A DNA stretch of 64,000 nucleotides from a virus (lineage: Duplodnaviria > Caudoviricetes). Every line of letters begins with the position of its first letter. The first letter of the stretch is position 1. A program made the translations under genes and the position numbers. The notes beneath the pieces were generated by a model. The model worked only from the letters and a program-made list of their open reading frames with translations. It was not told the origin of the DNA and searched no databases. This document shows positions 14,553 to 58,800 of the stretch, one piece after another. The DNA lies in IMG/VR virus record IMGVR_UViG_3300030376_001752, positions 4,118 through 68,117 of that record. One strand, given 5' to 3'.

Positions 14553-17500
14553 ATGGGATATTTCAATAGAAAATATTATAATACAGATAACGGTATAATA
14601 GACATTAGTGAACTCGATGAAAACCAGCAAATAAAGTTTTTCGTAAATAATCCTAATGCTGTAGAAGCAACTGAGCTTGAAACTAGAGAAGCTGGGTTAA
14701 CTAGACCAAACTCTGAAATTGTTAGTGAAGAGAATAGATTGTCTAAAAAAATGGAACAAGAACAAGAAGAAAAGTTTTTGTATTTAAAGTATGGAACGCC
14801 TAGACAAGATGATATTGAAATTAAACCAAGAATGTATGTAGGTGGTAAAGGTGACGAGGTTTCTAGAGAAGATTTTAATAGCGATACAGAGTGGAAAGCT
14901 TATCAGGTATGGAACGGTGATTTGAAAAGAGAAGCTGTACCTTTAAAGACTCAGGTGTACCAAAGAGTTAGAACTAATGACTTAGATGTTGGTGTTCAGA
15001 CTAGTGACTATTATTACAATAGAGACAAAAAAACAGATTTTGTAGACACACATTATGATAGCAAATCTTTAGAAGAAGCCGGTATAGATGTTGCTAATTT
15101 TCAAGGTTACTTAGAAAGTTCAGGTTATAGAGACGAATTTGATGAATATATAAATGATAACTCTTTTGATGGAAACTGGATTTCAGGCCAAAAAGAGTTA
15201 GACATAGCAAAAAACCGTACGTTAAAAGGTTATTTAGAACGTTATTTACAAGACGAAAATAATAGATTTACCGAAAAAATGTTTGTTGATGATTACTATC
15301 ACAACCAAGATAAATATAAAGATTACAAAGATTATTTTGAAGCATATGAAGCGTTTAAGACAGAGCAGTTTGGAGCTAAGAACGGTGGTGGTACTGTGTT
15401 TGATTACGAAAAACTAAACGCATATTCCGATGTTAATTACAAGAATGTCAAAGATAGAGATGCTTTAAATAGAAGAAATTTTATAAAACATATCGATGAT
15501 GTAGAGCAGCAGGGAGACGTTGTTGGTGGTGGTGCCGGTGCTTTAGAATTTTTTACTAGTGCTATTGGTGGAGCTTGGAGTGGATTAGATGAGTTATCTA
15601 TAACACTAGCTGATTGGTTTTGGATGGACGGCGTTGCTAATAGACGTAGATTTATTGACCAAGAACAAGATCTAGGTGATGCAGAATCAAACGCACAGTA
15701 TATGCTTTTTAGAGGTAAAATAGGTGAGATTGATGGTGTTCAATACGGCGTGGGTGATGATGGTAGTGTATATAATATAACTGAAAACCGAAATGTAACA
15801 AACGCTTTAACAGTAAATGAGATTGAAGAAATAACACAAACAGCAGAAAAAGAGAACTGGGAAGATGGTTATGATTGGTCAGCGAGAGGAAGTAGTAATA
15901 TGTCTGGGCATGTTATTGGTAATGTTATTTTTCAAATATTCGGTACAAAAGGAGCTGGTTATTTAAGAAACGTTGCTTCGTTAAAATATTTAGCAGCCGC
16001 AAATGGTTTTAAAAACGTAGCTCAATATGAAAAATACTTAAGACAAATAAAACTAAACCCTGAAAGACTAAAACAGTTTGGTGCAGCTAACAAAGGAACA
16101 TTTGGTAAAAAACTACCTTTTGATCCTAGAATAGTAGACGCTACAACTTTTCAAACTTTTTACGGTGCTACTACTGGATATGAAAGAACATTAAACGCGG
16201 CAGTAAACGCTGGTATACCTCGTGACGAGGCAGAAAAATTAGCAAGAACTGCTTCTGGGCAAATGGCGTTATTGTATGGTGTTACAGGTCCTATAAATCC
16301 TAGATTAGGAGGAATGAAATGGCTTGATAAACAATACTCTAAAATCTTTGGTAATGCTCAGCTTAACAATGTAATTAAAGCTTATAAACAAGGAGGTTTA
16401 AAAGGTGCTAACGATCAAATAAAAAAAGGTATAAAAAGTTTTATACCTAACAACCCAGGACAAATGCACAAAGCATTTTGGAGCGAAGGTGCAAGAGAAG
16501 TTTTACAAGAAAACATACAGCAAGGTGGTGAGTTTTTATTGGTTAACAGAAGTTTAAACGAGGCAGCTGGCCAAGAATTTTTAAAACAAGATTACACTTT
16601 AAGAGATTTTATAGAAACATCTGTTCTTTCTTTAGCTGCAGGTGGTTTAGTTGGTGGTTTTAGTTCAGCAAGCACAAGCACTATTAATAGTAAAAAAGCT
16701 CAGCTACAAGATATGTGGTCGTTGTCTAATAACATGAAGCAAACCAAAGAGTTATTAGGAGGAGCTGTAGAGAATGACATGTTAACTCAAGAAGAAGCAG
16801 ATGATCTTTATAAGTCTATACAGTCTATTGGTAAAGCTAAGCTACCTGCTTGGATGATAAACACTCCTGAAGAATATATTGAAGCTGCTAACGTACAAAA
16901 CGCGTTGGAAGTTTTAAAAAGAAAATCAAAGAAATCAGGTGATGAATCATCTAATAAAGATCAAATAGCAGCGCTAGAGAACAACTTAAAAGACATTGTT
17001 AAAAAAGCAGCGTCAGCTGAAATCAATAAAGAAATAGATTTTGTAGGTAAGATAGTTGGTAAGAAAAACATAAAAGTTTTTAATACGCCTGAAGAAATAA
17101 AAAAAGCTGGTTTTAGCTCTGAAATGTTTACAGATGGTTGGTTTGAATCAAACGGGGTTATATATATAAACAAAGAAATGGCTGCAGCAAACCAAGCTGT
17201 TAGTGTAGCTTCTCATGAGCTGTTACATAAAATATTAAAAGCTGAGTTTAAAGGTAATCCAGAAATACAAAAAGTTGTAAACGAGTTTAAAGAAATACTA
17301 AAAGAAAAAGGCGTGTGGAGCGCTATAGAAAGAAGAGAGGCTTTGTATAAAGCTGATGGTAGAGCTGATTTAGATGGTGTAGATGCTGATGAGTATTTGA
17401 CAATGTTCTCTGATGCACTAGCTAAAAATGAAATACCTTTTGAAGCATTAGAAGAAGCACAGTGGAAACAAATAGGTAGATCTATAATGACCGCTTTAAA

Positions 17501-20500
17501 AAAGAAACTTCCTAAAGCTTTAGGTGGACAAACAACAGAGTTTGCTACTGGTAGACAAGTATATGACTTTATATTAGATTATCACAAAAACATAAAGAAA
17601 GGTAGAATATCTAACCAAGCACAAAGAATGCTTGACATGTTTGAACCTGATGAGTTACAGAAAGATGATAAAGGTAATACTATAAATAGAAAAAGATCTA
17701 TTAATATAGAAAAAGAATCTAATCAAGAAATACTTAACCAACTTCCTAATGGTTTTAACGAGGCAACAGGTCAACAAGAAACTGAATTTATAAAAAGCAA
17801 ACAGTTTCAAGCTGCAAAAGCATTGATTGATAACGGCGCTTTTGATAGATTAATAGGTGCTAAGTTAGCAAGTGGTAGTAATATATTTGGAAGACCTAGA
17901 GAAGAGGTTATGGAAGAGATACGTGCTCAACTTGTAAGGCACTTAGAAAACTTTAACCCAGCAAAAAACAAAGATCTATTTGCTTATTTAAACTCTTACA
18001 TAGGTAGAAAAGTAGGTACTGTTACAACTAGAATAAAAAAGAGAAGAGTAAGAACTACGCCTTTAACTAAAGACATTAAAGGTGAAACAGTTGAAACACA
18101 GATAGCTGATATGGCTCCTGATCCAGAACAACAAATGATACTTGCTGAGGAACAAGCGGCTGCACTTATTAAATCAACTGAGCTTAAAATGGGTAAGAAA
18201 CTAGACCCAGATACTGTAGCTAAAGTTAAAAAACTTATAGTACCTATAATTAGAGATATGGATGTAAAGCTAACAGCTGATAAATCTATAAACGCTAAGA
18301 ACTCACCAATGATAAAGTATTTAAAAAATGCTTTAAAGAACTCTTTAGTATATGACGCTATGATTGCTGAGCTTGGTAAAGGTGAAGTTACAAAACAAAA
18401 GATACTTGAGTTTAAACAAGATGTTTTAAAAAATGCTACTACAACTTGGCTGCAAGGTAAAACACAGAAAAATGGTACGGTTAATGGAGGTATACCACAA
18501 GCTATAGATAAAGTTATAAAACTACAAGACGGTAGTGAAGTTAGAGTATCTTATCCTGATTGGGTTGGAGAAAAAATAGCTATAGAAAAAATGGGTACTG
18601 ATAACGCTGGTAGAACCGCGGGTCATGCCTTAGTATTTAGAAGTGAGCAAGAAGTAAGTGATGAAGCTTACATGTCTCAGTTTTACAAAGATGGCAAGCT
18701 AATAAGAAATAGAAAAGAATCTTTAGCAGAAGAAATGGCTAAGGAAATAGGTATAGAAATAATACTTGACGAACTTGTTAATAATCCTAAAGGTGAAATA
18801 GCACAAGCATTTGAACAAAATCAATTAGCAAAAGGTGTTATGAATGCTGTGCAAAAAATTGGTGAAGTATTTGTACAAGCAGACAGATCAGGTATAAAAA
18901 GATCTTTATCAGCAAACAAAGAAGTTGCTATCGCTAGATTTGAAAGACTAGCTATATTAGGTTACGAAGGTAACTTTAAATCTTTAGCAATGGAAAAAGA
19001 AATGCTGAGAGGAACTCCTTACGAGTTTGTTATAAAAATATATGAAGAAAACTTTGCACTTGATGCTGAAGCTTTAACTGGTTTTATTGATCCAATGAAA
19101 GCTTACGCTGAAACATTACCAGAAAGCGATCCTACCAAAAAATATATACAAGAGTTTTTAAACATGGATAAAGCTCAGAAAATAAAAGCTATAGCTAGTT
19201 TTTCAGAAGAATTAGCTAAAGTTATACCACCTGAGTTGTTTAAACTACCTAATCTTGGTTACGACTTTTTAGGTGTATTTGATAGAGTTATAAAACCTAA
19301 TTCACCTGAAGGGGTTAAAATTAAAAAAGCAGCTGACAGTGATGTTGATGGTGAAGTCCCTGCTTGGATGGAAGATATACTACCTATATTCAGCACAGGT
19401 GGTATTGTAGGTTCTATAGTAAACAAAATACAAAACAAAACATTTGCTAGTAAAGAAGAAGCACAGCAAGAGTTTGATAAACTATATGCTGAGAAAATAG
19501 AAAAAGCAAACATTGCTAACATTAAACTCTTTAACTATATTGTAGACGCTGCTACTAAGGTTGTTGCTAAAAACCCTAAGCTTATGCCTGGTTATTTAGC
19601 TTTGTTCCAAAGTAACACGGGGGATATAATAAAAGGTATGAGAGCTTTTGGCGTATTGCAAGATGTAGAAATACATGCTGAGATACAAGCTCCTTTTATT
19701 AGTAAAGATGGTACTAAAGGTTATAAATCAATAGACGCTACAAATAGAAAAGCTTATGATGCTGGAGATATACAAATAAATTATAACCACCCTTTATTTG
19801 CTAGAGTAAAAAAATATGTTGACGATCAAATTGCTGAACTACAAGAAGAACTAGCAAACACAACAGCTCCTAAAAAGAGAGAGAAGTTATTAAAAAGAAT
19901 AAATAAAGACAGAGATGAATTATATAGAGCTCTACTAAGACCTTACACAGAACATAAAAACCCTGCTTCAAATAAATTTGGTGATATAGCAAGAGACCAA
20001 ATGGTGATACTTAGCAAGATAATAGGTAAAGGTTTGACAGATTCTCAAATAGATGTCGCTATAAACGCTTATCAACTGCACAACGGTAAGCTTGCAGATA
20101 TTATATCTGATTTTACAATGACTATAAACACTTCTGTTATATCAAAGATACAAGATGATATACATAGTAAGACGAGTAGTTTAGGAGATGCTAGAGTTTT
20201 TGCTATTGAAAATCAATACGTACAAAATTTATATCCTATAAAAGGACAGGTTCCAGCTTTAAAAAGAGCTGACAATGTTTTAAAAGCAGATGTTGATCAG
20301 TTTGTTAAGATAATGGAGCTGCAAAATGCTATCAACACATCTAATAGCACTAAAAGAAGTTTAAGCCCTAGAGGTATTAGTGTTTATGATTTTGACGACA
20401 CACTAGCTTTTAGTAAAAGTCAAATAATAGTAACAATGCCTAATGGTAAGGTGACTAGAATTACACCTGCTAAGTTTGCTACTGATGCAACTAAACTAGA

Positions 20501-22961
20501 AAAGCAAGGTGCTCAATTTGATTTCAGCGAATTTAATGATGTTATAGATGGTAAACCTGGACCGTTAATACCTAGGTTAAGAAAAGCAATTGATAAGTTT
20601 GGTAATAAAAACATATATGTATTAACAGCTAGACCACAAGCGTCTGCACTAGCTATATATAAATTCTTAAAAGGCTTAGGTGTAGAAATACCTTTAGAAA
20701 ACATTACAGGTTTAGAAAACGGTAAGCCTAGCGCTAAAGCTAATTGGATGATTGGTAAGATAGCTAAAGGTTATAATGACTTCTACTTTGTTGATGATGC
20801 TATGAAAAACGTGTCAGCAGTTAAACAAGTTTTAGAAAACTATGATGTAAAAGGTAAAGTTCAACAAGCTGTTATAAAAAGAAAAAGAAGTCTTAACATC
20901 GACATCAACCAGATGATTGAAAGAAACACTGGTGTTGGTGCAGAGAAAACATACTCTAAGGTTGTAGCTAGAAAGAAAGGTGCTGGTAAATTCCAAAACC
21001 CATTTGTTCCTTACAGTGCTGAAGATTTTAGAGGTTTAACATCTTACACTTTATCTGGTAAAGGTAAACAAGGTGAGCAAGATCAACAGTTCTTTGAAGA
21101 CAATTTAATAAATCCTTACATAAGAGGAGTTGCTGCCATGGAAACGATTAGGCAAGCAATGAAAAACGAATATGATAGATTGTTAAAAGCAAACCCAGAG
21201 CTTAGAAAGAAAATAAACAAAGAGGTTCCTGAATTAGGATTTACACATGACCAGGTTATAAGGATATACTTATACAACAAAGCTGGATATGAAGTTCCTG
21301 GTATATCTAAAAGAGATTTAAAAGCTGCGGTTGATTTTGTTACTAAAAACGAAGACATAGAATTATTTGCTAATGAACTACTTTTATTAACAAAAGGTAA
21401 TCAATGGGTAAAACCTGATGAATTTTGGGATGTTGGTAGTTTATTAAAAGATCTTAACACGTTTAATGATGATGTAAATAGAAAAGAATATCTAGCTGAG
21501 TTTATAGAAAACGTTGACATTATGTTTGACGAAGCAACCTTAAATAAACTTGAAGCTATATATGGAACAAAATATAGAAAAGCTTTAGAGAATATAATAG
21601 CTAGAATGAAGTCTGGTAGTAATAGACCAAGTAAAATGGGTACTACAGAAACAAAATGGATGAATTGGTTAAATAATTCTGTTGGTTCTATAATGTTCTT
21701 TAACAGAAGATCTGCTTTGTTACAGATGTTATCATTTGCTAACTTTACAAACTGGTCTGATAATAATCCAATTGCGGCTGCTGCGGCTTTTGCTAACCAG
21801 CCTTTATATTGGAAAACATGGGTAAGAATATTTAACTCTGATAAATTAAAACAAAGACGTGGTGGTTTAAAATCAGATTTACAAGAACAAGAGATTGCTA
21901 ACGCTGCTAAAAACTCTAAAGGTAAACCTGAAGCTATTATAGCTTATTTATTGAAAATAGGTTTTACACCTACACAAATAGCAGATAGTATGGCTATTGC
22001 TACAGGTGGTGCTAGCTTTTTAATAAATAGAACTAAAACATATTTAAAACAAGGTTTATCACAAGAAGAAGCTGATGCTAAAGCTTTTGAAGATTTTAGT
22101 AAAATATCTGATGAGACTCAGCAGTCTGGTGATCCAATGCTTATATCATCTCAACAAGCTAGTCATTTAGGTAGGATAATACTAGCGTTCCAAAACACTC
22201 CTATGCAGTATACGAGATTAATAAAGAAAGCTGCACAAGATTTATACAATGGTAGAGGTGATGCTAAAACTAATATATCTAAAATATTATATTATGGATT
22301 TGTACAGAACTTAATATTTAACGGTTTACAACAAGCTTTATTCGCATTAACAGATCCGTTCTTTGATGATGATGAAGAAGAATATGAAAAAGAATTAGCA
22401 AAGAAAGAAGTAAAAATAATAAACGGTATGATTGATAGTATATTGAGAGGTACTGGTTTATACGGAGCTGTTGCTGTTGGTTTAAAAAATACATACAGAA
22501 CTTACATGAAGCAAGAGGAAAAAGGTTATAGAGCAGATCATGCTCACACTCTTATTGAGTTAGCCAACATTTCACCTCCTCTTGGATCTAAAATGAGAAA
22601 AGTTTACTCTTCAATTTTAGAATACAAATACAACAAAGCATTAATTAAAGAAAGAGGTTGGTCGTTAACGGCTGACGGTAGAGTAAACGTTGCTCCCAAC
22701 TATATGATACTAGCTAATCTTGTTTCTGCTGGATTTAACGTTCCTCTTGATAGAGCTATTATAGAGATTAACGGTATTTCAGAATCACTTGATAATAGAA
22801 ACAATGCAATGCAAAGAATAGCTTTACTACTAGGATTTAGAACTTGGGATGTAAATGTTAAAAATGAAGAAAATGATTTTATAGAAGCTTTCTATAAAGA
22901 ATTAAAAGAATTAGAAAAGAAGAAGAAAAAGAGGCACACACCACGTAAAAGAAAGAAATAA
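14553..22961 (+). CDS. Giant (2802 aa) ejection/polyvalent polyprotein: zincin peptidase, sigma-region-2-like domain, HAD phosphatase
   Basis: Gly-rich hydrophobic helices near both ends; HELLH (HExxH) at about 17214; sigma-like segment at about 17800-18170; HAD motifs DFDDT / LTAR / K / FVDD at 20370-20850; four KRS[L/I] motifs. Confidence 0.75.
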   Translation: MGYFNRKYYNTDNGIIDISELDENQQIKFFVNNPNAVEATELETREAGLTRPNSEIVSEENRLSKKMEQEQEEKFLYLKYGTPRQDDIEIKPRMYVGGKGDEVSREDFNSDTEWKAYQVWNGDLKREAVPLKTQVYQRVRTNDLDVGVQTSDYYYNRDKKTDFVDTHYDSKSLEEAGIDVANFQGYLESSGYRDEFDEYINDNSFDGNWISGQKELDIAKNRTLKGYLERYLQDENNRFTEKMFVDDYYHNQDKYKDYKDYFEAYEAFKTEQFGAKNGGGTVFDYEKLNAYSDVNYKNVKDRDALNRRNFIKHIDDVEQQGDVVGGGAGALEFFTSAIGGAWSGLDELSITLADWFWMDGVANRRRFIDQEQDLGDAESNAQYMLFRGKIGEIDGVQYGVGDDGSVYNITENRNVTNALTVNEIEEITQTAEKENWEDGYDWSARGSSNMSGHVIGNVIFQIFGTKGAGYLRNVASLKYLAAANGFKNVAQYEKYLRQIKLNPERLKQFGAANKGTFGKKLPFDPRIVDATTFQTFYGATTGYERTLNAAVNAGIPRDEAEKLARTASGQMALLYGVTGPINPRLGGMKWLDKQYSKIFGNAQLNNVIKAYKQGGLKGANDQIKKGIKSFIPNNPGQMHKAFWSEGAREVLQENIQQGGEFLLVNRSLNEAAGQEFLKQDYTLRDFIETSVLSLAAGGLVGGFSSASTSTINSKKAQLQDMWSLSNNMKQTKELLGGAVENDMLTQEEADDLYKSIQSIGKAKLPAWMINTPEEYIEAANVQNALEVLKRKSKKSGDESSNKDQIAALENNLKDIVKKAASAEINKEIDFVGKIVGKKNIKVFNTPEEIKKAGFSSEMFTDGWFESNGVIYINKEMAAANQAVSVASHELLHKILKAEFKGNPEIQKVVNEFKEILKEKGVWSAIERREALYKADGRADLDGVDADEYLTMFSDALAKNEIPFEALEEAQWKQIGRSIMTALKKKLPKALGGQTTEFATGRQVYDFILDYHKNIKKGRISNQAQRMLDMFEPDELQKDDKGNTINRKRSINIEKESNQEILNQLPNGFNEATGQQETEFIKSKQFQAAKALIDNGAFDRLIGAKLASGSNIFGRPREEVMEEIRAQLVRHLENFNPAKNKDLFAYLNSYIGRKVGTVTTRIKKRRVRTTPLTKDIKGETVETQIADMAPDPEQQMILAEEQAAALIKSTELKMGKKLDPDTVAKVKKLIVPIIRDMDVKLTADKSINAKNSPMIKYLKNALKNSLVYDAMIAELGKGEVTKQKILEFKQDVLKNATTTWLQGKTQKNGTVNGGIPQAIDKVIKLQDGSEVRVSYPDWVGEKIAIEKMGTDNAGRTAGHALVFRSEQEVSDEAYMSQFYKDGKLIRNRKESLAEEMAKEIGIEIILDELVNNPKGEIAQAFEQNQLAKGVMNAVQKIGEVFVQADRSGIKRSLSANKEVAIARFERLAILGYEGNFKSLAMEKEMLRGTPYEFVIKIYEENFALDAEALTGFIDPMKAYAETLPESDPTKKYIQEFLNMDKAQKIKAIASFSEELAKVIPPELFKLPNLGYDFLGVFDRVIKPNSPEGVKIKKAADSDVDGEVPAWMEDILPIFSTGGIVGSIVNKIQNKTFASKEEAQQEFDKLYAEKIEKANIANIKLFNYIVDAATKVVAKNPKLMPGYLALFQSNTGDIIKGMRAFGVLQDVEIHAEIQAPFISKDGTKGYKSIDATNRKAYDAGDIQINYNHPLFARVKKYVDDQIAELQEELANTTAPKKREKLLKRINKDRDELYRALLRPYTEHKNPASNKFGDIARDQMVILSKIIGKGLTDSQIDVAINAYQLHNGKLADIISDFTMTINTSVISKIQDDIHSKTSSLGDARVFAIENQYVQNLYPIKGQVPALKRADNVLKADVDQFVKIMELQNAINTSNSTKRSLSPRGISVYDFDDTLAFSKSQIIVTMPNGKVTRITPAKFATDATKLEKQGAQFDFSEFNDVIDGKPGPLIPRLRKAIDKFGNKNIYVLTARPQASALAIYKFLKGLGVEIPLENITGLENGKPSAKANWMIGKIAKGYNDFYFVDDAMKNVSAVKQVLENYDVKGKVQQAVIKRKRSLNIDINQMIERNTGVGAEKTYSKVVARKKGAGKFQNPFVPYSAEDFRGLTSYTLSGKGKQGEQDQQFFEDNLINPYIRGVAAMETIRQAMKNEYDRLLKANPELRKKINKEVPELGFTHDQVIRIYLYNKAGYEVPGISKRDLKAAVDFVTKNEDIELFANELLLLTKGNQWVKPDEFWDVGSLLKDLNTFNDDVNRKEYLAEFIENVDIMFDEATLNKLEAIYGTKYRKALENIIARMKSGSNRPSKMGTTETKWMNWLNNSVGSIMFFNRRSALLQMLSFANFTNWSDNNPIAAAAAFANQPLYWKTWVRIFNSDKLKQRRGGLKSDLQEQEIANAAKNSKGKPEAIIAYLLKIGFTPTQIADSMAIATGGASFLINRTKTYLKQGLSQEEADAKAFEDFSKISDETQQSGDPMLISSQQASHLGRIILAFQNTPMQYTRLIKKAAQDLYNGRGDAKTNISKILYYGFVQNLIFNGLQQALFALTDPFFDDDEEEYEKELAKKEVKIINGMIDSILRGTGLYGAVAVGLKNTYRTYMKQEEKGYRADHAHTLIELANISPPLGSKMRKVYSSILEYKYNKALIKERGWSLTADGRVNVAPNYMILANLVSAGFNVPLDRAIIEINGISESLDNRNNAMQRIALLLGFRTWDVNVKNEENDFIEAFYKELKELEKKKKKRHTPRKRKK

Positions 22962-35866: not shown

Positions 35867-36631
35867 TTACAGGTAATCAAGCACTTGCGAGTGGTCTACG
35901 TTTTCTATTAATTTGTTTACCGCTTGCTTTTTTAGTTGTGAGACTCTTACATAAGAACTACTACCTTCAATATTTAATATTGATGCTATCTCTTTTGCTG
36001 AGTGTTTCTCACAGTCTAATCCATAACTTAATCTTAACACATTGTATTCTCTATCATCTAGATGTTTCTTTAACAAACTAGTTAAATACATATTAAGTAA
36101 GTTCATGTTGTATGGCTCGGATTTGTCTGGTATTTGATATATCATATTCTCATCATTGTTTGGTTTGTCATCAATGCTTAAGAATATTGAGTTGAAAAAC
36201 ATTGCTACCATTTTCTTATCCTTGCCAAAGTTTTTACGTATTTCGTTTAGCTTATGCTCAGGTATACGTATGTCACCTCTATGAATATCTATTGATCTTC
36301 TTATCGCGCCTCTAATTCTTTTAGATAAAAAGCTTTTCATTGTCTGCTCTTTATCTTCAGACTCATTCATTCTTTCCCAATCAATTCTATCCACAGCTTT
36401 TGTCAAGCCAATTCTTCCATCTTGTATAAGATCTCTTATGTCTAACACTCCAGAAGCTTGTTGACTTGTAGAGAATTTTCTAGCTAAGTTTTCTACTAAA
36501 GGTAGAAATTTAGTTATCAATTCATCTCTTGTGTACAAATGATAATCTGTACCGTAATCCGGTAACCTTTCTAAGGTTTCTTCAAGGTCATTCTTATCTC
36601 TAATGTAGCCTTGAATATTATATTTCTTCAT
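35867..36631 (-). CDS. Phage sigma-70 family RNA polymerase sigma factor
   Basis: Region 2 'LPLVENLARKF...DLIQDGRIGLTKAVDR...IRGAIRRSI'; region 4 HTH 'REYNVLRLSYGL...SAKEIASILN...RVSQLKKQAVNKL'. Confidence 0.9.
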   Translation of the reverse strand: MKKYNIQGYIRDKNDLEETLERLPDYGTDYHLYTRDELITKFLPLVENLARKFSTSQQASGVLDIRDLIQDGRIGLTKAVDRIDWERMNESEDKEQTMKSFLSKRIRGAIRRSIDIHRGDIRIPEHKLNEIRKNFGKDKKMVAMFFNSIFLSIDDKPNNDENMIYQIPDKSEPYNMNLLNMYLTSLLKKHLDDREYNVLRLSYGLDCEKHSAKEIASILNIEGSSSYVRVSQLKKQAVNKLIENVDHSQVLDYL

Positions 36632-37253
36632 TCATCAATTTTTTTTCTCGTTTTAAAGTATCACACATGTGTCTGTGTATTGTTCTTTGTGAAACACCTA
36701 ATAGTTCAGCCATCCAACGAATAGTTATTTTTTTGCCATTGTGGTTTATATCTACCATGCACTGATATATCGTTTCTTTATCTAGCTTGTTTCTACCTAT
36801 TAATTGTCCTACAATTTTTAATTTACCACTAAGGTCTAAACCAGAGTGAGGTTTAAATACTACTTTACGTAGCTTGTTTGCTGGTGGATCACCACCTTGG
36901 TTAAATACATCTTCTATCATAGAATATAATAAATTCTGTTTAATAAAAAAAGTAACGAAACCATTTTCTTTATTAGCTATAAATTTAAATACATACCTCA
37001 TATCATCTTCTAATGATATTTCATCACCATCTACACCATCTATATTTAAATAATATAATACAAGCATGTGCCACTTTAATGATTTGTATGTAGTTATTTT
37101 AGCCTTGCTATTAAACAAGTGATAACATTGATACGTACCATTTTCGTAGTATTTATATTGCTTGGTTTCAATAGTAGGTACATCAGTCGTAGGATCTCTC
37201 CTGTAGACGATGCGTCTATCATTTAACCATTTTAAATTTCTGTCTTGTGACAT
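36618..37253 (-). CDS. HTH-containing DNA-binding protein (regulator or replication initiator)
   Basis: C-terminal 'ITIRWMAELLGVSQRTIHRHM' HTH; its start codon lies inside a 47-bp palindromic element. Confidence 0.65.
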   Translation of the reverse strand: MSQDRNLKWLNDRRIVYRRDPTTDVPTIETKQYKYYENGTYQCYHLFNSKAKITTYKSLKWHMLVLYYLNIDGVDGDEISLEDDMRYVFKFIANKENGFVTFFIKQNLLYSMIEDVFNQGGDPPANKLRKVVFKPHSGLDLSGKLKIVGQLIGRNKLDKETIYQCMVDINHNGKKITIRWMAELLGVSQRTIHRHMCDTLKREKKLMNEEI

Positions 37254-37292
37254 AAGCCTATTACTATCTATATCTTAAGGGCTGTTGTCACA
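37246..37292 (-). promoter_or_regulatory. Palindromic element A (twin of 44976-45023)
   Basis: TGTGACAACAGCCCTTAAGATATAGATAGTAATAGGCTTATGTCACA; 40/48 identical to element B by manual alignment. Confidence 0.7.
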
Positions 37293-39388: not shown

Positions 39389-39420
39389 TATTATCCAACT
39401 TCGTTCGTATTTATATTGTA
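39389..39420 (-). promoter_or_regulatory. Early promoter motif copy 1
   Basis: TACAATATAAATACGAA-N8-GATAATA. Confidence 0.8.
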
Positions 39421-39914
39421 TTTGTAAGAATGTCAACAATTTTCTGTGCGTGACTTCTAACTCTGTTATAATTAGCTATATATCTAGTTTCGCCATTAGC
39501 AAAGTCAGTATAATCCATATCTTTCATGTATTTAGATATAATCTTCTCAGGTTTAAGTACAAACACGTTTTTACTACTATAATTATCATAGCAACTAACC
39601 CATCTGTCTTGTTTACCTGTAAATATAATATAAGTATATTGATGGTCAATATTAGCGTGATCCGCATATAAGTAGCAACTGTCATAGTACATATCATGAA
39701 CTAACTTAGCAGCTAAACGGCTACCGTCACTAGTTGGGTTAGCGTGTAACCAATTAGCGATCTGTATACCTTGCCACTCAGGATAACCGTCATGATGTAA
39801 GTACATATTTACATAGCTTTTGTCACTGAAAAAACTAGGGTTTTCTGCAAAACCAAGCTCTGATTCTTCAGCGTGTCGTCTATCTACGACCATAGTTAAA
39901 TTTCTTGTAGCCAT
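39411..39914 (-). CDS. Hypothetical early protein (YxHxDGYP motif)
   Basis: 167 aa; 'MYLHHDGYPEWQG'. Confidence 0.7.
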   Translation of the reverse strand: MATRNLTMVVDRRHAEESELGFAENPSFFSDKSYVNMYLHHDGYPEWQGIQIANWLHANPTSDGSRLAAKLVHDMYYDSCYLYADHANIDHQYTYIIFTGKQDRWVSCYDNYSSKNVFVLKPEKIISKYMKDMDYTDFANGETRYIANYNRVRSHAQKIVDILTNTI

Positions 39915-40417: not shown

Positions 40418-40425
40418 TTTTTTAG

Positions 40426-40499
40426 ATGCGCAGGAAGGATTCGAACCTTCGACCTCGAGCTTATGAGGCTCGCGAGCTGACCAACTGCTCCACCGCGCA
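40426..40499 (-). tRNA. tRNA with CAT anticodon (Met-like, atypical identity elements)
   Basis: Full cloverleaf: TGCGCGG/CTGCGCA acceptor, GAGC/GCTC D-stem, CGAGC-CTCATAA-GCTCG, GAAGG-TTCGAAT-CCTTC; U73; no encoded CCA. Confidence 0.9.
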
Positions 40500-41013: not shown

Positions 41014-41045
41014 TATTATCTAACTTGATTCGTATTTATATTGTA
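41014..41045 (-). promoter_or_regulatory. Early promoter motif copy 2
   Basis: TACAATATAAATACGAA-TCAAGTTA-GATAATA. Confidence 0.8.
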
Positions 41046-41120
41046 ATATCAAGGGTGACACCATGCACAGTGTCCAAGCTTTCTGAGGTGTTAACCGTCC
41101 TTCTTGTTTTACCCTGTTAG

Positions 41121-41167
41121 AGAACATGGTGGGATTCGAACCCACACTTTAGTACCGTAGCATGTTC
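41121..41167 (-). ncRNA. tRNA minihelix 1 (acceptor stem + T-arm, no D or anticodon arm)
   Basis: GAACATG-(15 nt)-GTGGG TTCGAAT CCCAC-CATGTTC-T, followed by CTAA. Confidence 0.65.
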
Positions 41168-41261
41168 TACCATAATTACTACTTGTCACTACGACTGGCT
41201 TTGTACAACTGATACCTCAAGGAAGCCAAGGCGTCGATTTACTGTTAAAGTAATAAATTAG

Positions 41262-41422
41262 TGGACGTGGCAGGATTCGAACCTGCGTTACCGGGTTGCG
41301 GTTGGATTCAACTAAACTGAGGCTGCCTCAATTAGCAACTCTTGCAGCAAGATTAACACCGTTGCTTTGAGTGTAAGTTTAGTTTACTGTTACCGATTTC
41401 CGGTCAATACCTCATCACGCCC
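41262..41422 (-). ncRNA. ssrA: Miniature tmRNA-like RNA (161 nt)
   Basis: GGGCGTG/CACGTCC acceptor with G3.U70 and A73; D-loop analogue ATGAGGTATTGAC; CCGG/CCGG helix; TAAC linker; T-arm GCAGG-TTCGAAT-CCTGC. Confidence 0.75.
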
Positions 41423-42238: not shown

Positions 42239-42270
42239 TATTATCTGATTGTATTCGTATTTATATTGTA
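42239..42270 (-). promoter_or_regulatory. Early promoter motif copy 3
   Basis: TACAATATAAATACGAA-TACAATCA-GATAATA. Confidence 0.8.
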
Positions 42271-42273
42271 AAA

Positions 42274-43706: not shown

Positions 43707-43738
43707 TATTATCTATATTAATTCGTATTTATATTGTA
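43707..43738 (-). promoter_or_regulatory. Early promoter motif copy 4
   Basis: TACAATATAAATACGAA-TTAATATA-GATAATA. Confidence 0.8.
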
Positions 43739-43845
43739 ATTCTAACACGGACAAAATATCCATAGTGTTATATAAAAGATATAGAATATAAACATTAGAA
43801 ATATAAAGTTAATTACTATATCAGTTATTTTATTTTTGTTCTTGT

Positions 43846-44413: not shown

Positions 44414-44445
44414 TATTATCTAATGTGTTTCGTATTTATGTTGTA
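44414..44445 (-). promoter_or_regulatory. Early promoter motif copy 5
   Basis: TACAACATAAATACGAA-ACACATTA-GATAATA. Confidence 0.8.
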
Positions 44446-44520
44446 AAAGTAGATAATTTGTTTATATTATATTTTTTAGTGTGTAGTATTGCGCACACTC
44501 TCACAATTTCTAAATATTTA

Positions 44521-44695: not shown

Positions 44696-44727
44696 TATTA
44701 TCTAACGCCATTCGTATTTAGGTGGTA
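44696..44727 (-). promoter_or_regulatory. Early promoter motif copy 6
   Basis: TACCACCTAAATACGAA-TGGCGTTA-GATAATA. Confidence 0.75.
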
Positions 44728-44975
44728 AATGCTATACATTATTTATAACTGTATGTAGCATGGCGAAACGTAGATAATATTGTTGTGAACTGTATATAGT
44801 AATGCTATACATAACGGTTAGTTGTGTGTATGCTGAGCAGAGTAAACACCAAAACAATATGCAATATGCAGATAAACAGGCGGGGCTAGTCAATATATAT
44901 ATGACTTTGGATAATGGGCTATGTGGTGGGAGGGGAGGAGCAACACTGTACCTCTATATATCTAACGTGTTTTTT

Positions 44976-45023
44976 TATGACAATAGCCTATAAGTATATA
45001 CTTAGTAATAGGCTTGTGTCACA
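44976..45023 (+). promoter_or_regulatory. Palindromic element B (twin of 37246-37292)
   Basis: TATGACAATAGCCTATAAGTATATACTTAGTAATAGGCTTGTGTCACA. Confidence 0.7.
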
Positions 45024-45711: not shown

Positions 45712-47283
45712 ATGGAATTCAATCATCCGAGCGATATTGTCAAAGACTTAAATTTTGGCAATGACGCGAAAAGTAAGATAATTACAGGTGTAGATAAGCT
45801 AGCTAAAGCAGTTAGATCTACATTAGGTGCATCTGGTAAATGTGTTATTTACGAAGACGCTAGAGGAAAACCGGTTATAACAAAAGACGGAGTAACAGTA
45901 GCAGAATCTGTTGTCTTATATGACCCGGTTGAGAATATAGGTGCTACACTTATAAAAGAAGCGGCTAGAAATACAGTGAAAGAAGCAGGTGACGGTACCA
46001 CTACGGCTACTGTCCTTGCTGAATCACTACTAAAAACAGTAAATAACGAAAAATACAAAGATGAACCTATTAGAGAAGTCAAGGCAGGAATCACAACCGG
46101 TCTTGAAAAGATTAATAAATACCTTTCAGAACACGCCAAAACAATATCTGGCTCTCAGCTTACCAATGTGGCAACGATTTCATGTAATAATGATCAGGAA
46201 CTTGGTGGCATTATTGCGTCAGCTTACGAAAAGGTAGGTGAAGATGGTGTAGTTTTAATGGAAGAAAGTGAAAATGAGGTAACATATGCTGATATTGTGC
46301 AAGGAGTACAGTTAGAATGTGGTATGACATCATCTCATTTTGTAACAGATAAAGATAGACAAGTAGCAATACTGGAAAATCCATACGTTTTGATCGTAAC
46401 GTCACCAATTGCTAACTTAAGAAAGATACAACCTATACTAGAGCATGTTATAAAGAAGAACAGATCTCTATTAATTGTTGCTGGTGTTGAAGAACAAGTA
46501 AAATCAGCGCTATTAATGAACAAAGTAAAGGGTAATATCAAGGTAAACATAATAGATCCGCCAGGTTTTGGCCCTACAAAGGAAGATACGGTGCAAGATT
46601 TAGCATTATTAACCGGTGCAACTATTATGAATGAAGAGCTTGGAGATGATCTTGATCTGATCCGGCCAGATTGTTTGGGTGAAGTAGTCAAATCTGTAAC
46701 TGATAACAGAACTACAGTCCTAACAACTGGCTCTACAGGAGAAAATCTACAAGATAGACTAAAAGAAATAAGAAAAAAGATAAAAGATTCTAAAGATCCT
46801 TATATAACACGTAGATTACAGCAAAGATTAGCTATGTTAAACGGTGTTGTAGGTATAGTAAAGGTAGGAGCAACCTCAAAAGTTGAATTAAAAGAGAAAA
46901 AAGATAGAGTTGAGGATGCAATTTACGCTACAAAAGCGGCTTTACAAGAAGGAATCGTTCCCGGCGGCGGTATTGCACTGTTAAACGCAGCTTTAAATAC
47001 AAAAGAAGAAAATGTTGGTGAAAAAATACTATCAGAAGCTATAGTTTCACCATTTAGAACAATTTTAGAGAACGCTGGAATAGAAAATATAAAAATTCCG
47101 TCTAAAGACGGTTACGGTATTGATGTTACTACTGGAAAAGAGGTTGATATGATTAAACATGGTATAATCGACCCAGTTTTAGTTACAAAAACCGCGCTAA
47201 AGAATGCAGTTAGCGTAGTTTCAACAATAATTTCTGCAGATTGTGTAATTTCTAATATAAGAATAACCAATGCGAGCAATTAA
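45712..47283 (+). CDS. groEL: Chaperonin GroEL (phage-encoded)
   Basis: 'TKDGVTVA', 'AGDGTTTATVLA', 'EGIVPGGG', 'GIIDP'; lacks the GGM tail. Confidence 0.95.
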   Translation: MEFNHPSDIVKDLNFGNDAKSKIITGVDKLAKAVRSTLGASGKCVIYEDARGKPVITKDGVTVAESVVLYDPVENIGATLIKEAARNTVKEAGDGTTTATVLAESLLKTVNNEKYKDEPIREVKAGITTGLEKINKYLSEHAKTISGSQLTNVATISCNNDQELGGIIASAYEKVGEDGVVLMEESENEVTYADIVQGVQLECGMTSSHFVTDKDRQVAILENPYVLIVTSPIANLRKIQPILEHVIKKNRSLLIVAGVEEQVKSALLMNKVKGNIKVNIIDPPGFGPTKEDTVQDLALLTGATIMNEELGDDLDLIRPDCLGEVVKSVTDNRTTVLTTGSTGENLQDRLKEIRKKIKDSKDPYITRRLQQRLAMLNGVVGIVKVGATSKVELKEKKDRVEDAIYATKAALQEGIVPGGGIALLNAALNTKEENVGEKILSEAIVSPFRTILENAGIENIKIPSKDGYGIDVTTGKEVDMIKHGIIDPVLVTKTALKNAVSVVSTIISADCVISNIRITNASN

Positions 47284-53111: not shown

Positions 53112-53297
53112 ATGATAATTAAAGTAGAATATGATAAATCAGATGCTACTTTAACGCTCACAAAAGACGATAATATAGTTGCTGTTATCAATGACAATAC
53201 GGTTGTTGATAATAGCGACACATTATCTTTTGAAATAGCGTTAAACGTATCTCAATATCAAGAACAATTTTTAATAGATGGCGAACCTAACGAGTAG
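53112..53297 (+). CDS. Small hypothetical protein
   Basis: 61 aa between tail genes. Confidence 0.55.
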   Translation: MIIKVEYDKSDATLTLTKDDNIVAVINDNTVVDNSDTLSFEIALNVSQYQEQFLIDGEPNE

Positions 53298-55824
53298 TCA
53301 GTCTGGTAACTGGACAAGCTCTTCAACTTGGGGAGGTTCCACTCCTGCTGACGGAGACACATTTACTATTTCACAAGGACATATAGTAACAGTAAACTCT
53401 GATCAAAGAGCTGGTACTGGTTTTGGTGATATACTTGTTAGAGGTAATCTACATTTTGCAACTAACGGTAAAATTAGAATTAACGGTAGAATTACTGTAC
53501 AAGGTAATGGTTCTACTGATTATTCTAAAAGTGGTGGTGTTTCCGCACAAGACTTTACTGAAGGTGGTAGTTCTTCTGGTGCTTTATTATCTGCTACAGG
53601 TAACAACATACATTTAGAATTTGAAGGTACTGATGCTGATCAACATGGTATATGGGTAGAAAACATAAGCTATTCATCTTGGAAGTTTATAGGTGATGAT
53701 AGTGTAACAACCACAGAGTTAAGCGCTGTTGCTAATACAAATGATGATTATATAACTGTTGATAGCGCTACTGGTTTTGGTATTGGAGATTGGGTTGCAA
53801 TATACAAAGGAGTAGGAACTAATAGATATTACCATGGAGATGAAGGTTGTTGGGTTCATGATGTTGATACATCTAATAATAGAATATATGTAAAAAAGTT
53901 TGTAGGTCCTAAGGCAATAGTTTCTTCTGCCAGCGGTACTTCCTTAGTTGTTGATCACACTAAAATATTCAGAGTAGGCTACAAAATTATATTCGGCACA
54001 GGAAGTAATAGAAACACAAGAACTATAACCGCAATAAATCACACAACAAATACATTAACATTAAATTCTACTATATCTGGTACTATATCAAGTGGTACTG
54101 AGGTATATGAAACTGGTTTAGATAAAAAGCACGCGGTCGACTGTAAAGTTAGGGTTAATGCGCATGTGCTTACTAGCGCTGGCGCTGTTGGTGATACTAC
54201 AGTAACTGTTAGCGATGCAACAGATATAAGTGTTGGACATACCATAAATATTGATGTTAATAATGATGTTGATACAAATTGGGATTATAATAGCGAATAC
54301 GAAGTTACTAATAAAAGTGGTAACACATTAACAATTAGTCCAGCTCTAGGACACGTTAGAAAAGTTGGTAGTTTAGTACAAAGATTAGATAGATCAATAA
54401 CAATAGAAGGTGTAGATACAGATGTTAGAGCTTTTTGCTACGTAGAATATGATACTGATAGTAATAGAGCTGGTACAAGAGAAATTGGTTTAAAAGATAT
54501 ACGTTGGTACAGAATGGGTGGTAATACTAATAATAATTTTTACCGCGGTGCTTGTATGGTTGCTGGTTATAATAGTGATATTGGTACTGGTTATGCTACA
54601 AACTCAAGAGAAGATTATCAAAGTGGTTATCAAAATTGTGTAGTGCATGACTCAAATAATAAGAATAATTACACTGGAATGAACAGTAGGCATGCTATAG
54701 GTTTTATTTGGAGAAATTGCATTTCAGTTAATGCTGGTCAAAGAGCTTATTGGCAATGGTCGTCTCATTACAACGTACAGTTTGTAAATAACTACGGTAC
54801 AAGAAATGCTTACGCTACTGTAGATAACGGCGCGATGTATGATAACCCAGAATACGCATACAATTACTCAACAAGATCTGATGATTATGCTTGGCTGCTT
54901 CATCACATGAGAAACATAAACTCAATACATAATAACATTTTCTTAAATCACGAGCAAAGACCTTTTTATATATATTACCAAACATCTGGAATACAATTTA
55001 GAAGAATGCATTTTGATGGTTTTAGAAATATACCTTATATAGGTATGGGTGGTGGACCAGTTGAATTTAGAGATTCATATTTTCAAAACAAATATTATAA
55101 ACACATACCAGGTACATACGCTGGTTATACAGACACTTTTGGCGTTGTGGATGCAAATGATTATATGGGTAATAGCGGTTGGGACGGTAGAGCTGATTAC
55201 ACTAGAAACCCAGGTTTTGGTATGTTAAGTGAGTGGTTTGATTGGAATTTTGAAGAAAATAAAACCGCTGTTGTAGAGGCAACAAACTTGATATGGCAAG
55301 AAAACCAAGACAAGATATGGGGTCTTGTTAATTTAAGATCAGAACATGCGTTAGCCTGTCAATCTCATATATACGTACCACCAAATACAAGTGTTACAAT
55401 AACAGGTGAATTTAAAGGTCAAGCTAGTGGAAGTTATACAAGACCTTATTTACTCGCTAGAAAAGCAACTGAAAGATGGATGGGTAGATACTCAATTTTA
55501 AGTGGAGAGCATACATCAACTTTTAATCTTAGTAGCAGTAGTGATGTTAAAAATAGTAATGTGTATGGTTTTTTAGAACAAACACAATTTACTGAATCTA
55601 GTTACGGTGCTTGGGAACAAAAAACATTAACTTTAGATGCACAGAAATATGGCTATAAATTAATAGCTGGTTACAAAATAGCTAGTAACAATCAAGAAGA
55701 AATAGGCTATGTAAAAGATTTAGAAATAACACTTGGCTCAAAATCAAAAATGAAGTCAAGACATTTTGAATCAAGATCAATACATAGCGGTGCTAGTAAA
55801 AAACGAATATCAGGAAGAATTTAA
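53278..55824 (+). CDS. Tail spike-like protein (G8-like N-terminus, beta-helix)
   Basis: 'SSQSGNWTSSSTWGGSTP..GD' N-terminus; Asn/Tyr-rich central repeats. Confidence 0.6.
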   Translation: MANLTSSQSGNWTSSSTWGGSTPADGDTFTISQGHIVTVNSDQRAGTGFGDILVRGNLHFATNGKIRINGRITVQGNGSTDYSKSGGVSAQDFTEGGSSSGALLSATGNNIHLEFEGTDADQHGIWVENISYSSWKFIGDDSVTTTELSAVANTNDDYITVDSATGFGIGDWVAIYKGVGTNRYYHGDEGCWVHDVDTSNNRIYVKKFVGPKAIVSSASGTSLVVDHTKIFRVGYKIIFGTGSNRNTRTITAINHTTNTLTLNSTISGTISSGTEVYETGLDKKHAVDCKVRVNAHVLTSAGAVGDTTVTVSDATDISVGHTINIDVNNDVDTNWDYNSEYEVTNKSGNTLTISPALGHVRKVGSLVQRLDRSITIEGVDTDVRAFCYVEYDTDSNRAGTREIGLKDIRWYRMGGNTNNNFYRGACMVAGYNSDIGTGYATNSREDYQSGYQNCVVHDSNNKNNYTGMNSRHAIGFIWRNCISVNAGQRAYWQWSSHYNVQFVNNYGTRNAYATVDNGAMYDNPEYAYNYSTRSDDYAWLLHHMRNINSIHNNIFLNHEQRPFYIYYQTSGIQFRRMHFDGFRNIPYIGMGGGPVEFRDSYFQNKYYKHIPGTYAGYTDTFGVVDANDYMGNSGWDGRADYTRNPGFGMLSEWFDWNFEENKTAVVEATNLIWQENQDKIWGLVNLRSEHALACQSHIYVPPNTSVTITGEFKGQASGSYTRPYLLARKATERWMGRYSILSGEHTSTFNLSSSSDVKNSNVYGFLEQTQFTESSYGAWEQKTLTLDAQKYGYKLIAGYKIASNNQEEIGYVKDLEITLGSKSKMKSRHFESRSIHSGASKKRISGRI

Positions 55825-55834
55825 AATATAAAAC

Positions 55835-58800
55835 ATGGCAATACCGTTTTTAAATAACATAACAATAGATAAAGCTGGTCACATACAGTTTAAAACAGCT
55901 GCAGGTGCTAACGCTGGTAAAATAGATCAAGACGGAAACAATTTAGTTTTAACTAATGCTGTTGGTGATATTTTATTAGGTGATGGTTCATCTGACGTGT
56001 ATATTGGTGACGGTACAAATAATGTTGATATTATATTTGAACAGTCTGGTAGTATAAAAGGTGACGGTAGCGCAGTAACACTTACATTAGGTGGTGCTAA
56101 TACAACATTAAATTTAGAAAACCCAAATATAAATGGTGCATTATCACTAAGTGGTGCTACAACCATAAGCAACAAACTTACATTTACCACTTCAAACGGT
56201 TATATATTATTTGATTACGAGCCATCAGGAGATACGGGTGAATATTCTACAGAAACACCTTTACTAAAAGTTGACATGAATGGATCAGAGTCAACAATAC
56301 TATCAAGAATAAGTGAATATAGAGCTGTTGCTTTAGGTATTGACGATACAGTATGGTTGAGAGCTGGTGACACTGGATCTGTTATAAAAGCAAATGTAAA
56401 CTTATCAGCTGAGCAAGTTCTTATGTCAGCTGAAGGTGGTTTCCACGCATATGGTTTTCCTGGTAATGATACAGCTTGGTCAAATAGAGTAGAATTTAAA
56501 TTTAGAGCAGATAGCACAACAGCTAGTGATAATGGGTTATACATAGGTGATGGTGGTAATACACAATTTATAGATTTAAGTAGAAACTTAAAAAATATTG
56601 GAACAATAAATTCTGGAGCTATAACTTCCACAGGTACGGTAACGGCAAATCAAATAAACCTAGACTCTGTAGGTGATTATATAACTTTTTATGGTGGTGG
56701 TGAAACAAACCACTCTATTACATCTAGAGAATTAGGTGGTGGAACTGGAGATGATATAAGAATAAATACATATGGCTCTTTTATTGTGAATTTAGATTCA
56801 AACAATAATCAAACGTCTGCGGCTAACTCTAGTTTCTTTGTTGGTAGACATGGGGGTAATGCTTCTGGAATATCTGGTAATAATCTTTTATTTCAAATAG
56901 ATGGAGCAACTGGTAACGTTCTTCCCGGTGCAGATAGCACTCATGATTTAGGTACTTCATCAAATAGATGGGCAAACATATACGCAGATACACTATATGG
57001 TGATGGTAGTAATTTAACAAACATATCAGCAACTGATAGCACAAAGCTACCTTTATCTGGTGGTACTTTAACTGGTGACGTTACGTCTAATTCTGTTATA
57101 ACGGCAGATACACTTAAATTGACAAATGATGCCACTGATACAACTAGAAATAGAATTTCAGTATACGATTCAGGTGCCGTATCATACGGTATGATGTTAT
57201 GGAACGCTAATGGTACTTCAGGAGATTGGGCTACAATGATTTACGGTCCAAACCAAGCTAATAGAAGAATATCGTTTGGTAAAGCTAATTCAAACTTTGC
57301 AACTAATCACGCGGGTGTAGATGAACTAGCTTGGTTAGATTTAGATAATGGTAATTATTTTACTGATGGTAGCATGTACCCGTCAAATCAAACAACACAC
57401 TATGTAAGTTCAGGAAGAATACAAAACTGGCAAACTGCATATACACATTCACAAGCCGATCACGCGCCTAGTAATGCTGATGCTACACCATCATGGGTTC
57501 CAAGTTCTGATCCTGGTTATTTAACATCATCATCTACACAATCAAAATATTTAAGAAGTGATGCAGATGATACAGCCACTGGTCAAATAACTTTAGCTGA
57601 TAGTAATGCTTCTGATAGTCCCTTAATATTAGGTAGTAGTTCTCAAACAACCTATACTCTTCAACAATTTAGAACTTCTTCACACGGGTTAAACGCCGCT
57701 TATTTAATTGCGTATGGTGCTAGTCATGGATCGCAAGCAGGTAACTTTGCAATTAAAAATACGTTAAGTGGTAAAAACATATTTTTTGAAGTTGATGGCG
57801 TGGTTCCTTTAAAGTTAGAAAACGGTACTTCAACTATAACTGGAAATTTATTTGTAACTGGTGATTTAAATATAACAGGTGATATAAATTCTTACAATGT
57901 TACAGATTTAGATGTAGTTGATAAAACCATAACAATTGGTAAAGGCCAAACAGAAGCTAACTCAGGTGGTTCGGGTATTATTGTCGATGGTGCTAGCGCT
58001 AGTATTTTATGGGACGAATCTAATACTCTTTTTGATTTCAATCAAAATATTAATATAGAAACTGGTAGTATCGCTTTAGGTGGTGATGTTACTTTATTTA
58101 GAGACGGTGCTAACATACTAAGAACAGATGATGCTTTTCACGCTAACAATAATGTTTATGTTGGTGGTGCAGGTAAGTTATATGATAGAGCGGATAATAA
58201 TAATTACATCGAACTAGCCGATACAATACAAGTATCTACAGATACAAAAATATCAGGTAATCTTACTGTAGGTCCATCAGCAACTACTGGTGGTAGAATA
58301 TTAGCTCAAACATATACATCTGCAGATAGATTAGGTGTAATAAGTTCTCACGCTTCTAGTGGTAATCTTTTAATAGGTTATGGTGCTGAAGGAAAAACAA
58401 GTTCAAGTGGAGATTTTGTTTCTACATACGGTAACTTTAGTGGTGGTCACTCAGCTTTATCTGTTTCTGGTACACATCTTCGTTGGTACTCAGAAGCATC
58501 AAACTCAACAACATCTGTAGGTAGTGATTTAACATTAGCAAACGTATTTAGTGTTGATAGATCTGGTAACGTAGCTTTATCAGGTACTGTTGATGGTGTA
58601 GATATAGCGGCGCTTGCTGCTGCAAACACAGGTGATCAAGATTTAAGTGGACTTGTTACAAAAGCTAGTGCTCAAACAATATCAGGTGCTAAAACGTTTA
58701 GCGTGATGCCAACTTTTAACGCTGACACATTACACAATGGTCATATTTACGGTAGATCTGTAAATGATGAAGCTTCTAGATTATATAGATTTGGTGGTTT

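Follow-up and report, generated by a model that had tools for sequence, protein, structure and literature searches.

We analyzed a window of 64,000 nucleotides, corresponding to bases 4118 to 68117 of IMG/VR virus record IMGVR_UViG_3300030376_001752 (68,117 bp in total), which derives from an uncultured marine phage, and concentrated on a giant open reading frame (ORF) at positions 14553 to 22961 on the plus strand. This ORF codes for a 2,802-amino acid (aa) multidomain protein of the polyvalent type that, as judged from its relatives and from the families of its neighbors, belongs to the virion gene block. Predicted fold and profile comparisons indicate that residues ~1054-1166 of this protein (17712 to 18050, plus strand) very probably constitute a diverged sigma-70 domain 2 covering regions 1.2 to 2.4, an identity that is well supported at the level of the fold and weakly at the level of the sequence. 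In sigma factors, domain 2 attaches to core RNA polymerase at the beta-prime clamp helices and is the part that recognizes and melts the -10 element. The best explanation of our results, to which we assign a probability of roughly 0.4, is that a diverged sigma domain 2 fused to a domain with a candidate new fold resides inside a packaged and ejected polyvalent protein that would act on the host polymerase.

The sequence-only reading had described a string resembling sigma region 2 within this virion protein, and such a string is indeed present in frame +1 of the ORF, within positions 17800 to 18170, where it runs from REEVMEEIRAQL at residue 1116 (nucleotide 17898) to MILAEE at residue 1200 (nucleotide 18152). 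The predicted fold domain is wider than this string. When residues 1001-1400 were compared with all of Pfam, the sole relevant match was Sigma70_r2 (12.2 bits, library E 0.16), with residues 1116-1152 aligned to profile positions 23-59. When the 68-kb genome was searched in all six frames with Sigma70_r2 alone, two places emerged, the true sigma gene of the phage at 31.9 bits and the same site in the giant protein at 15 bits (E 0.0013). Among relatives of the giant protein, 2 of 34 match Sigma70_r2 at E ≤1, the best of them at E 0.0034.

Profile comparisons were made with two alignments, A2, which holds 34 sequences over residues 1040-1460, and A3, which holds the sigma-like segment alone from 33 sequences. 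Three of the four best matches of the A2 profile to PDB sequences were sigma factors (E 0.14-0.29), aligned on regions 2.1-2.4, and the realignment of the segment alone in A3 weakened these matches (WhiG, E 1.3) relative to those given by the longer A2. Alignment of A3 by hhalign to a sigma-2 reference, composed of the 23 Sigma70_r2 loci of one Flavobacteriaceae genome, gave a score of 21.0 (P 0.0035) over 51 columns in the register of regions 2.2-2.4. With the same reference the genuine sigma family of the phage scored 27.4 and the neighboring domain, used as a negative control, scored 14.8; none of 200 column shuffles attained 21.0 (mean 6.8, maximum 10.4). Furthermore, among 54 sliding 125-aa segments of an independent whole-protein alignment, the two that contain residues 1116-1166 ranked first and second (21.5 and 20.6, the next being 15.4), and the whole-protein family profile also had its best local sigma-2 match at residues 1116-1166. 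None of the sequence searches passes a conventional threshold, and all concur on family and register. The resemblance to sigma region 2 exceeds chance. We also considered that the module could be a recent duplicate of the phage sigma gene, which is unlikely given that its hhalign match to the phage's own sigma family is weak (P 0.03).

Within the family, residue 1145 is aromatic in all members of the 34-sequence alignment, position 1134 is Y or F in 28 of 34, P1136 is present in 21 of 34, and acidic residues occur at 1117 and 1122. L1142, I/L1146, N1147 and R/K1153 are also frequent and lie on region 2.3-2.4 positions in HMMER alignments. By our own mapping, the invariant aromatic 1145 presumably corresponds to Y430 of sigma70 and position 1134 to F419 (E. 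coli numbering). A clear region 2.2 signature is confined to one subfamily, D-E-I-E-T-G-x-G-G-I-L-D-L-I-x-K-Y-x-P, which in our own comparison we take to be close to D-L-I-Q-E-G-N-I-G-L-M-K-A-V-D-K-F.

At the level of structure, AlphaFold2 run on A2 gave a predicted local distance difference test (pLDDT) value of 77 overall and 76-88 across most of the sigma-like segment, and the sigma-2 fold, with the helices of regions 1.2, 2.1, 2.2 and 2.3-2.4, is present in the predicted model. A Foldseek search with the sigma-like model returned nothing at E <0.001 and a list dominated by sigma chains. When the ESM Atlas was searched with a protein language model, 25 of the 30 named clusters closest to the query carried PF04542 (score 0.97), and these are mostly short viral proteins. 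The predicted fold is kept in relatives down to 20% identity, together with the region 2.3 aromatic and the FxP-type positions.

The segment is followed by a linker at 18051 to 18116 (plus strand; model residues 129-150), first basic and then acidic, that is predicted to be disordered (pLDDT <50). The part of the string that had been read as a linker between sigma domains 2 and 4 (residues ~1167-1189) falls into this disorder and is thus not confirmable as a sigma linker. Beyond it, the family alignment and the model delineate a strongly conserved domain of ~260 aa (residues 1189-1451; 18117 to 18905, plus strand) that has many invariant residues, ends in a near-invariant ERGNVK[FR]S and always adjoins the sigma-2-like domain. 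Its model has a pLDDT of 86.7 and a predicted template modeling score (pTM) of 0.83, and neither its structure nor its sequence has a relative in PDB, Pfam or the ESM Atlas. On the basis of this model we regard the domain as a candidate for a new fold; the model of residues 1189-1451 gave no sigma-like fold match that could represent sigma-4. The earlier observation that no region 4 helix-turn-helix (HTH) follows the module holds, as PF04545 and PF08281 match only the true sigma gene and its neighbor. A module without region 4 is not a complete sigma factor of groups 1-4.

Regarding the location of the giant gene, the neighboring upstream genes match PHROG families 'virion structural protein' and tail fiber, and by these genes the nearest cultured phages are podophages of Flavobacteriia, namely Cellulophaga phages of Pervagoviridae and the Flavobacterium Elemovirus. 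In cultured relatives the same position is occupied by giant genes annotated as structural, Cellulophaga phage phi38:1 gp101 (1,691 aa) and Elemovirus gp18 (3,694 aa), neither of which contains the sigma-like module; Elemovirus gp18 has a weak profile match (17.9 bits) to the zincin-like HExxH region of the giant protein. Since synteny and neighbor families place the giant gene in the virion module, its product is probably packaged in a podovirus particle and ejected with the DNA. The giant protein has 40 full-length relatives of 1,604-3,294 aa and at least 595 loci in IMG/VR. It falls into no PHROGs family, and queries with the whole gene, residues 1001-1400 and the C-terminus gave no DNA or protein match among GenBank phages. 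A search for free-standing forms of the sigma-2-like module yielded only contig-end fragments and two proteins of ~1,420-1,440 aa. No Pfam, PHROG or PDB sequence match to a catalytic polymerase domain was obtained for the giant protein, for which the fold model covers residues 1040-1460. A DNAGR string at residues 1353-1357 resembles the DxxGR of T7-like RNA polymerases and lies in a domain without a polymerase-like fold. Pfam and PHROG searches likewise detected no RNA polymerase among the phage genes.

The reading of the module as a transcription factor is closely tied to the early promoters. The sequence-only reading had listed six early promoters that do not follow the Bacteroidota TAnnTTTG type, and these proved to be real, with six sites found by motif search on the minus strand versus 0.35 expected by chance, and to be conserved across the clade. 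They lie at 39389 to 39421 (copy 1, TTACAA-N3-AAATACGAA-N8-GATAATA), 41014 to 41046, 42239 to 42271, 43707 to 43739, 44414 to 44446 and 44696 to 44728. The consensus derived from 26 sites in four divergent genomes is TTACAA-N3-AAATACGA(A)-N8-GATAATA with fixed spacing, and at least one copy is present in 19 of 20 related records, mostly as several copies on one strand. phi38:1 and Elemovirus have one three-mismatch match each. Host-type promoters are not enriched in the window, either as TAnnTTTG (95 found versus 95 expected) or as TTTG-N-TAnnTTTG (5 found versus 4.5 expected). The 254-aa sigma gene of the phage lies downstream of the six early promoters. Given this order, and given that host-type promoters are not enriched, the first promoter must be read by a factor that is present at entry, which makes a delivered factor attractive.

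Several further features of this region were observed. An ATG occurs 6 nt past GATAAT in several promoter copies (e.g. GATAATATAAACATG at 39389), which suggests that the early mRNAs may be leaderless or near-leaderless. Among RNA runs, a single metatranscriptome contained the phage, with 6% of the sampled words, and it was set aside because it is stored as contigs, from which transcript starts are not visible. The T4 late -10 element TATAAATA is present in the promoter copies of this phage and was dropped from consideration as it is not conserved in relatives. Similar elements of the form TGACA ... AGTAATAGGCTT[A/G]TGTCACA, found at 37246-37292 (minus strand) and 44976-45023 (plus strand), head the sigma/replication and late operons and, as judged from their sequence, represent a second class of promoter or operator distinct from the six early sites. 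A T-arm-like GGATTCGAACC block is present in three copies (40422-40447, 41117-41142 and 41258-41283), and ARAGORN reports a single tRNA, for Met, at 40425-40499. The tRNA-like minihelices and the small tmRNA-like element noted from the sequence earlier match the other two GGATTCGAACC copies.

The ordinary sigma factor of the phage, identified by Pfam and by PHROG 351, is a 254-aa protein with regions 2 and 4 that is encoded at 35867 to 36631 on the minus strand (Sigma70_r2, 31.7 bits; Sigma70_r4, 28.1 bits). The gene is present in 18 of 20 related records, and the other two (G019 and G012) end where the gene would lie. These two records, which have no detectable sigma, were considered as a test of what reads the promoter and set aside, given that their promoter clusters are at the record ends, where the gene would be cut off. 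phi38:1 and Elemovirus have no sigma gene. The 254-aa sigma has >8,000 close metagenome relatives, many from Tara Oceans, and contigs with such relatives are binned in metagenome-assembled genomes labeled Woesearchaeota, Clostridium, Aliivibrio and others, which are probably mis-binned phage contigs. The sigma gene of one related record spans two overlapping frames (L169/L170, G002:C1:55767-56520), owing either to a frameshift or to an error in the assembly. The protein encoded immediately upstream of the phage's sigma gene (211 aa; 36618-37253, minus strand) has a C-terminal HTH with weak SpoIIID, HTH_11 and Sigma70_r4_2 similarity and may be a second transcription factor in the middle operon.

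Under the explanation that we prefer, the module would enter the cell inside the giant protein or as a ~403-aa piece lying between the K-R-S motifs at residues 1047 and 1449, and its sigma-2-like domain would dock on host core RNA polymerase and act locally on the entering genome. Internal virion proteins such as those of N4 and T7 are present in few copies per particle, and thus a locally acting factor fits better than a global inhibitor. The most attractive version is that of an initiation factor without sigma-4 that would work in the manner of T4 gp55, where the sigma-2-like domain would read GATAAT, the new-fold domain would take the place of sigma-4 in reading TTACAA-N3-AAATACGA, and the 254-aa sigma would take over later classes. 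A virion-delivered two-domain initiation factor of this kind (residues 1048-1450), with the early promoters firing before any phage protein is made, is a specific proposal that we hold tentatively and consider unlikely as it stands. The injected sigma factor that the sequence-only reading had put forward is, taken in full, plausible at a similarly low probability; what has stood from it is a domain-2-like module in a virion-block protein, the lack of region 4, and private promoters that occur throughout the clade, and we infer that the protein is packaged, ejected and cleaved and that the module binds polymerase and reads promoters.

Several points weigh against an action of this module on the host polymerase, and in particular against its reading of promoters. 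The segment scored under the curated Pfam cut-off for Sigma70_r2 (PF04542), which is 24 bits, in both the library and the genome search (12.2 and 15 bits). Its mean column identity across the clade is 19%, with the retained positions being of the core type (hydrophobic and aromatic), versus 71% for the 254-aa sigma. The latter is the obvious candidate for the reader of a bipartite -35/-10-like promoter, and the near-invariant promoter fits this strongly conserved sigma better than it fits the weakly conserved module. A host alternative sigma may also be the reader. Finally, the basis for packaging is gene order and the annotations of syntenic genes that are not homologous.

The likeliest alternative is that the module binds host polymerase and does not read promoters, serving instead as a tether at the site of DNA entry or as a competitor that displaces the host primary sigma from a few enzymes, with either the 254-aa sigma or an alternative sigma of the host reading the bipartite promoters. 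We regard this as a real possibility, if a minority one. The phage does have a sigma of its own that is complete (regions 2 and 4) and fits a promoter of two blocks; its strong conservation parallels that of the promoter and is not shared by the sigma-2-like segment. Within the clade this sigma gene and the module are found together, and phi38:1 and Elemovirus lack both. However, the gene of this sigma is itself downstream of the promoters, and no host-type promoter that could switch it on was found; as for a competitor, the known copy numbers suggest that a handful of injected molecules could not out-compete the host sigma pool.

It is less likely, and in our view rather doubtful, that the segment is a sigma-2 descendant or look-alike that now serves some role away from RNA polymerase, such as holding DNA or single strands in the capsid, providing the ejection protein with a spacer or folding unit, or binding the neighboring domain. 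Such a use would agree with the low conservation of the segment, in which no column is invariant and core-type positions alone are kept, and with the fact that the neighboring new-fold domain and the C-terminus are the best-conserved parts of the protein. It sits less well with the maintenance of the fold, with its region 2.3 aromatic and FxP-type positions, in relatives of only 20% identity, or with the region 2.2 signature in one subfamily that we find close to that of sigma.

A chance resemblance, in which AlphaFold and the profiles draw a generic bundle of four or five helices towards the abundant sigma family, is decidedly unlikely, as four kinds of method concur on family and register, the segment is the best of the 54 in the background of its own protein, and the confident model of the adjacent domain matches nothing. 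Least likely, and quite improbable, is that the giant protein is not packaged and is a late cytoplasmic protein whose module acts in late infection (late transcription or shut-off), which would agree with the basis for packaging given above but is countered by the position of the gene in the middle of the structural operon where cultured relatives have proteins annotated as structural, by the zincin-like motif common to the giant protein and Elemovirus gp18, and by a size and modular make-up typical of ejected internal proteins.

Additional parts of the giant protein were delineated around the module. Upstream of it, conservation marks a zincin-like region (17100 to 17690, plus strand) with HELLH at residues 888-892 and a downstream Glu, E947; H888, E889, H892 and E947 are invariant or almost so in the family, and the region has no Pfam or PDB sequence match. 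KRS[IL] motifs occur four times (17691, 18897, 20352 and 20883), all at domain borders, and are candidate polyprotein cleavage sites. The first, KRSI at residue 1047 (17691 to 17702, plus strand), is conserved as [KR][KR]S[ILY] in nearer relatives only. The second, KRSL at residue 1449 (18897 to 18908, plus strand), is inside the near-invariant ERGNVK[FR]S, with K1449 invariant and S1451 almost invariant in the family, and the counterpart of the last in relatives is K-F-S or N-R-K-R-S. Putative HAD-like phosphatase motifs, read from the sequence and the family consensus and undetected by Pfam, are present at 20358 to 20882 on the plus strand (VYDFDDTL at residue 1944, LTARP, and FVDDA at residue 2079); Elemovirus, in contrast, has a separate small HAD hydrolase gene. 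The C-terminal 690-aa domain (20883 to 22958, plus strand) is the best-conserved part of the protein, with 57% mean column identity, and has no PDB or Pfam match. Relatives of the giant protein carry the zeta-toxin/kinase families PF06414 and PF13671 (e.g. P0040 and P0167). The giant protein thus combines several unrelated domains, with zincin-like, sigma-2-like and HAD-like regions beside two conserved domains of no recognized family, and there is domain swapping among its relatives, as is characteristic of polyvalent proteins.

Elsewhere in the window, the late operon opens with a GroEL-type chaperonin gene (Cpn60_TCP1, E 7e-54) at 45712-47283 on the plus strand, as it does in Elemovirus and phi38:1, which additionally have GroES-like genes. 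Two ORFs on the plus strand before the terminase (53278-55824 and 55835-61021, coding for 848 and 1,728 aa) have no Pfam or PHROG family.

Among known systems, one close parallel is T4 gp55, a late sigma factor with a sigma-2-like domain only, which is a free protein of 185 aa that is made after infection and that requires gp33 and the sliding clamp. We took chain F of PDB entry 7d7d to be T4 gp55. Unlike this free small protein, the sigma-2-like domain described here forms part of a 2,802-aa chain encoded in the virion module and has a conserved new domain after it. The giant protein therefore departs from the gp55 type, defined as a free small protein that works with a co-activator and the sliding clamp at a -10-only promoter. 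It also differs from free-standing phage sigma factors, such as phiEco32 gp36 and the phage's own 254-aa sigma, which possess both regions 2 and 4, are made once the phage has entered the cell and score above Pfam thresholds. In phiEco32 and its Kuravirus relatives, gp36 and its counterparts are phage-supplied promoter-specificity subunits for host core polymerase that have private promoter motifs (PMC4281155). A preparation of phage SU10 contained one sigma peptide amid many non-structural proteins, which provides no evidence of packaging (PMC4281155). Full-text literature searches gave no description of a virion-borne or injected phage sigma.

Polyvalent proteins of phages and conjugative elements, which carry swappable effector domains, were proposed to jump-start transcription or counter defence at entry, with a zincin as the presumed chain-cutting enzyme (Iyer, Burroughs, Anand, de Souza, Aravind 2017; PMC5512222). 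Like these, the protein described here is a giant multidomain protein in a virion block that has a zincin-like motif and swapped effector domains. Unlike them, no MuF-type head-anchoring domain was found in it, and the word sigma is absent from the text of that study (PMC5512222). The virion RNA polymerase of N4 is likewise a giant protein, and its ejection frees early transcription from the need for new protein synthesis (PMC4496689). N4-like and crAss-like virion polymerases carry a whole polymerase, whereas here there is a sigma-like module as a putative handle for the host enzyme, with no polymerase family found in sequence searches of the protein and no polymerase-like fold in the model of residues 1040-1460. 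T4 Alt is a packaged ADP-ribosyltransferase that is delivered by the virion and retargets host polymerase to phage early promoters (PMC5512222). Alt acts as a polymerase-modifying enzyme and, unlike the module described here, does not resemble a sigma subunit.

The family concerned is large, with the number of IMG/VR loci given above, and its phages are abundant in marine samples. Even if an injected sigma should fail as an explanation, a sigma-2-like domain and a conserved new-fold domain would join the parts list of polyvalent phage proteins. If it is true, it would explain how a phage starts up when none of its promoters follows the host consensus. Known takeovers of early transcription employ strong host-type promoters, an injected RNA polymerase (N4, crAss-like and phiKZ-like phages) or an injected modifying enzyme (T4 Alt), and a sigma-like subunit delivered by the particle would constitute a fourth, cheaper solution.
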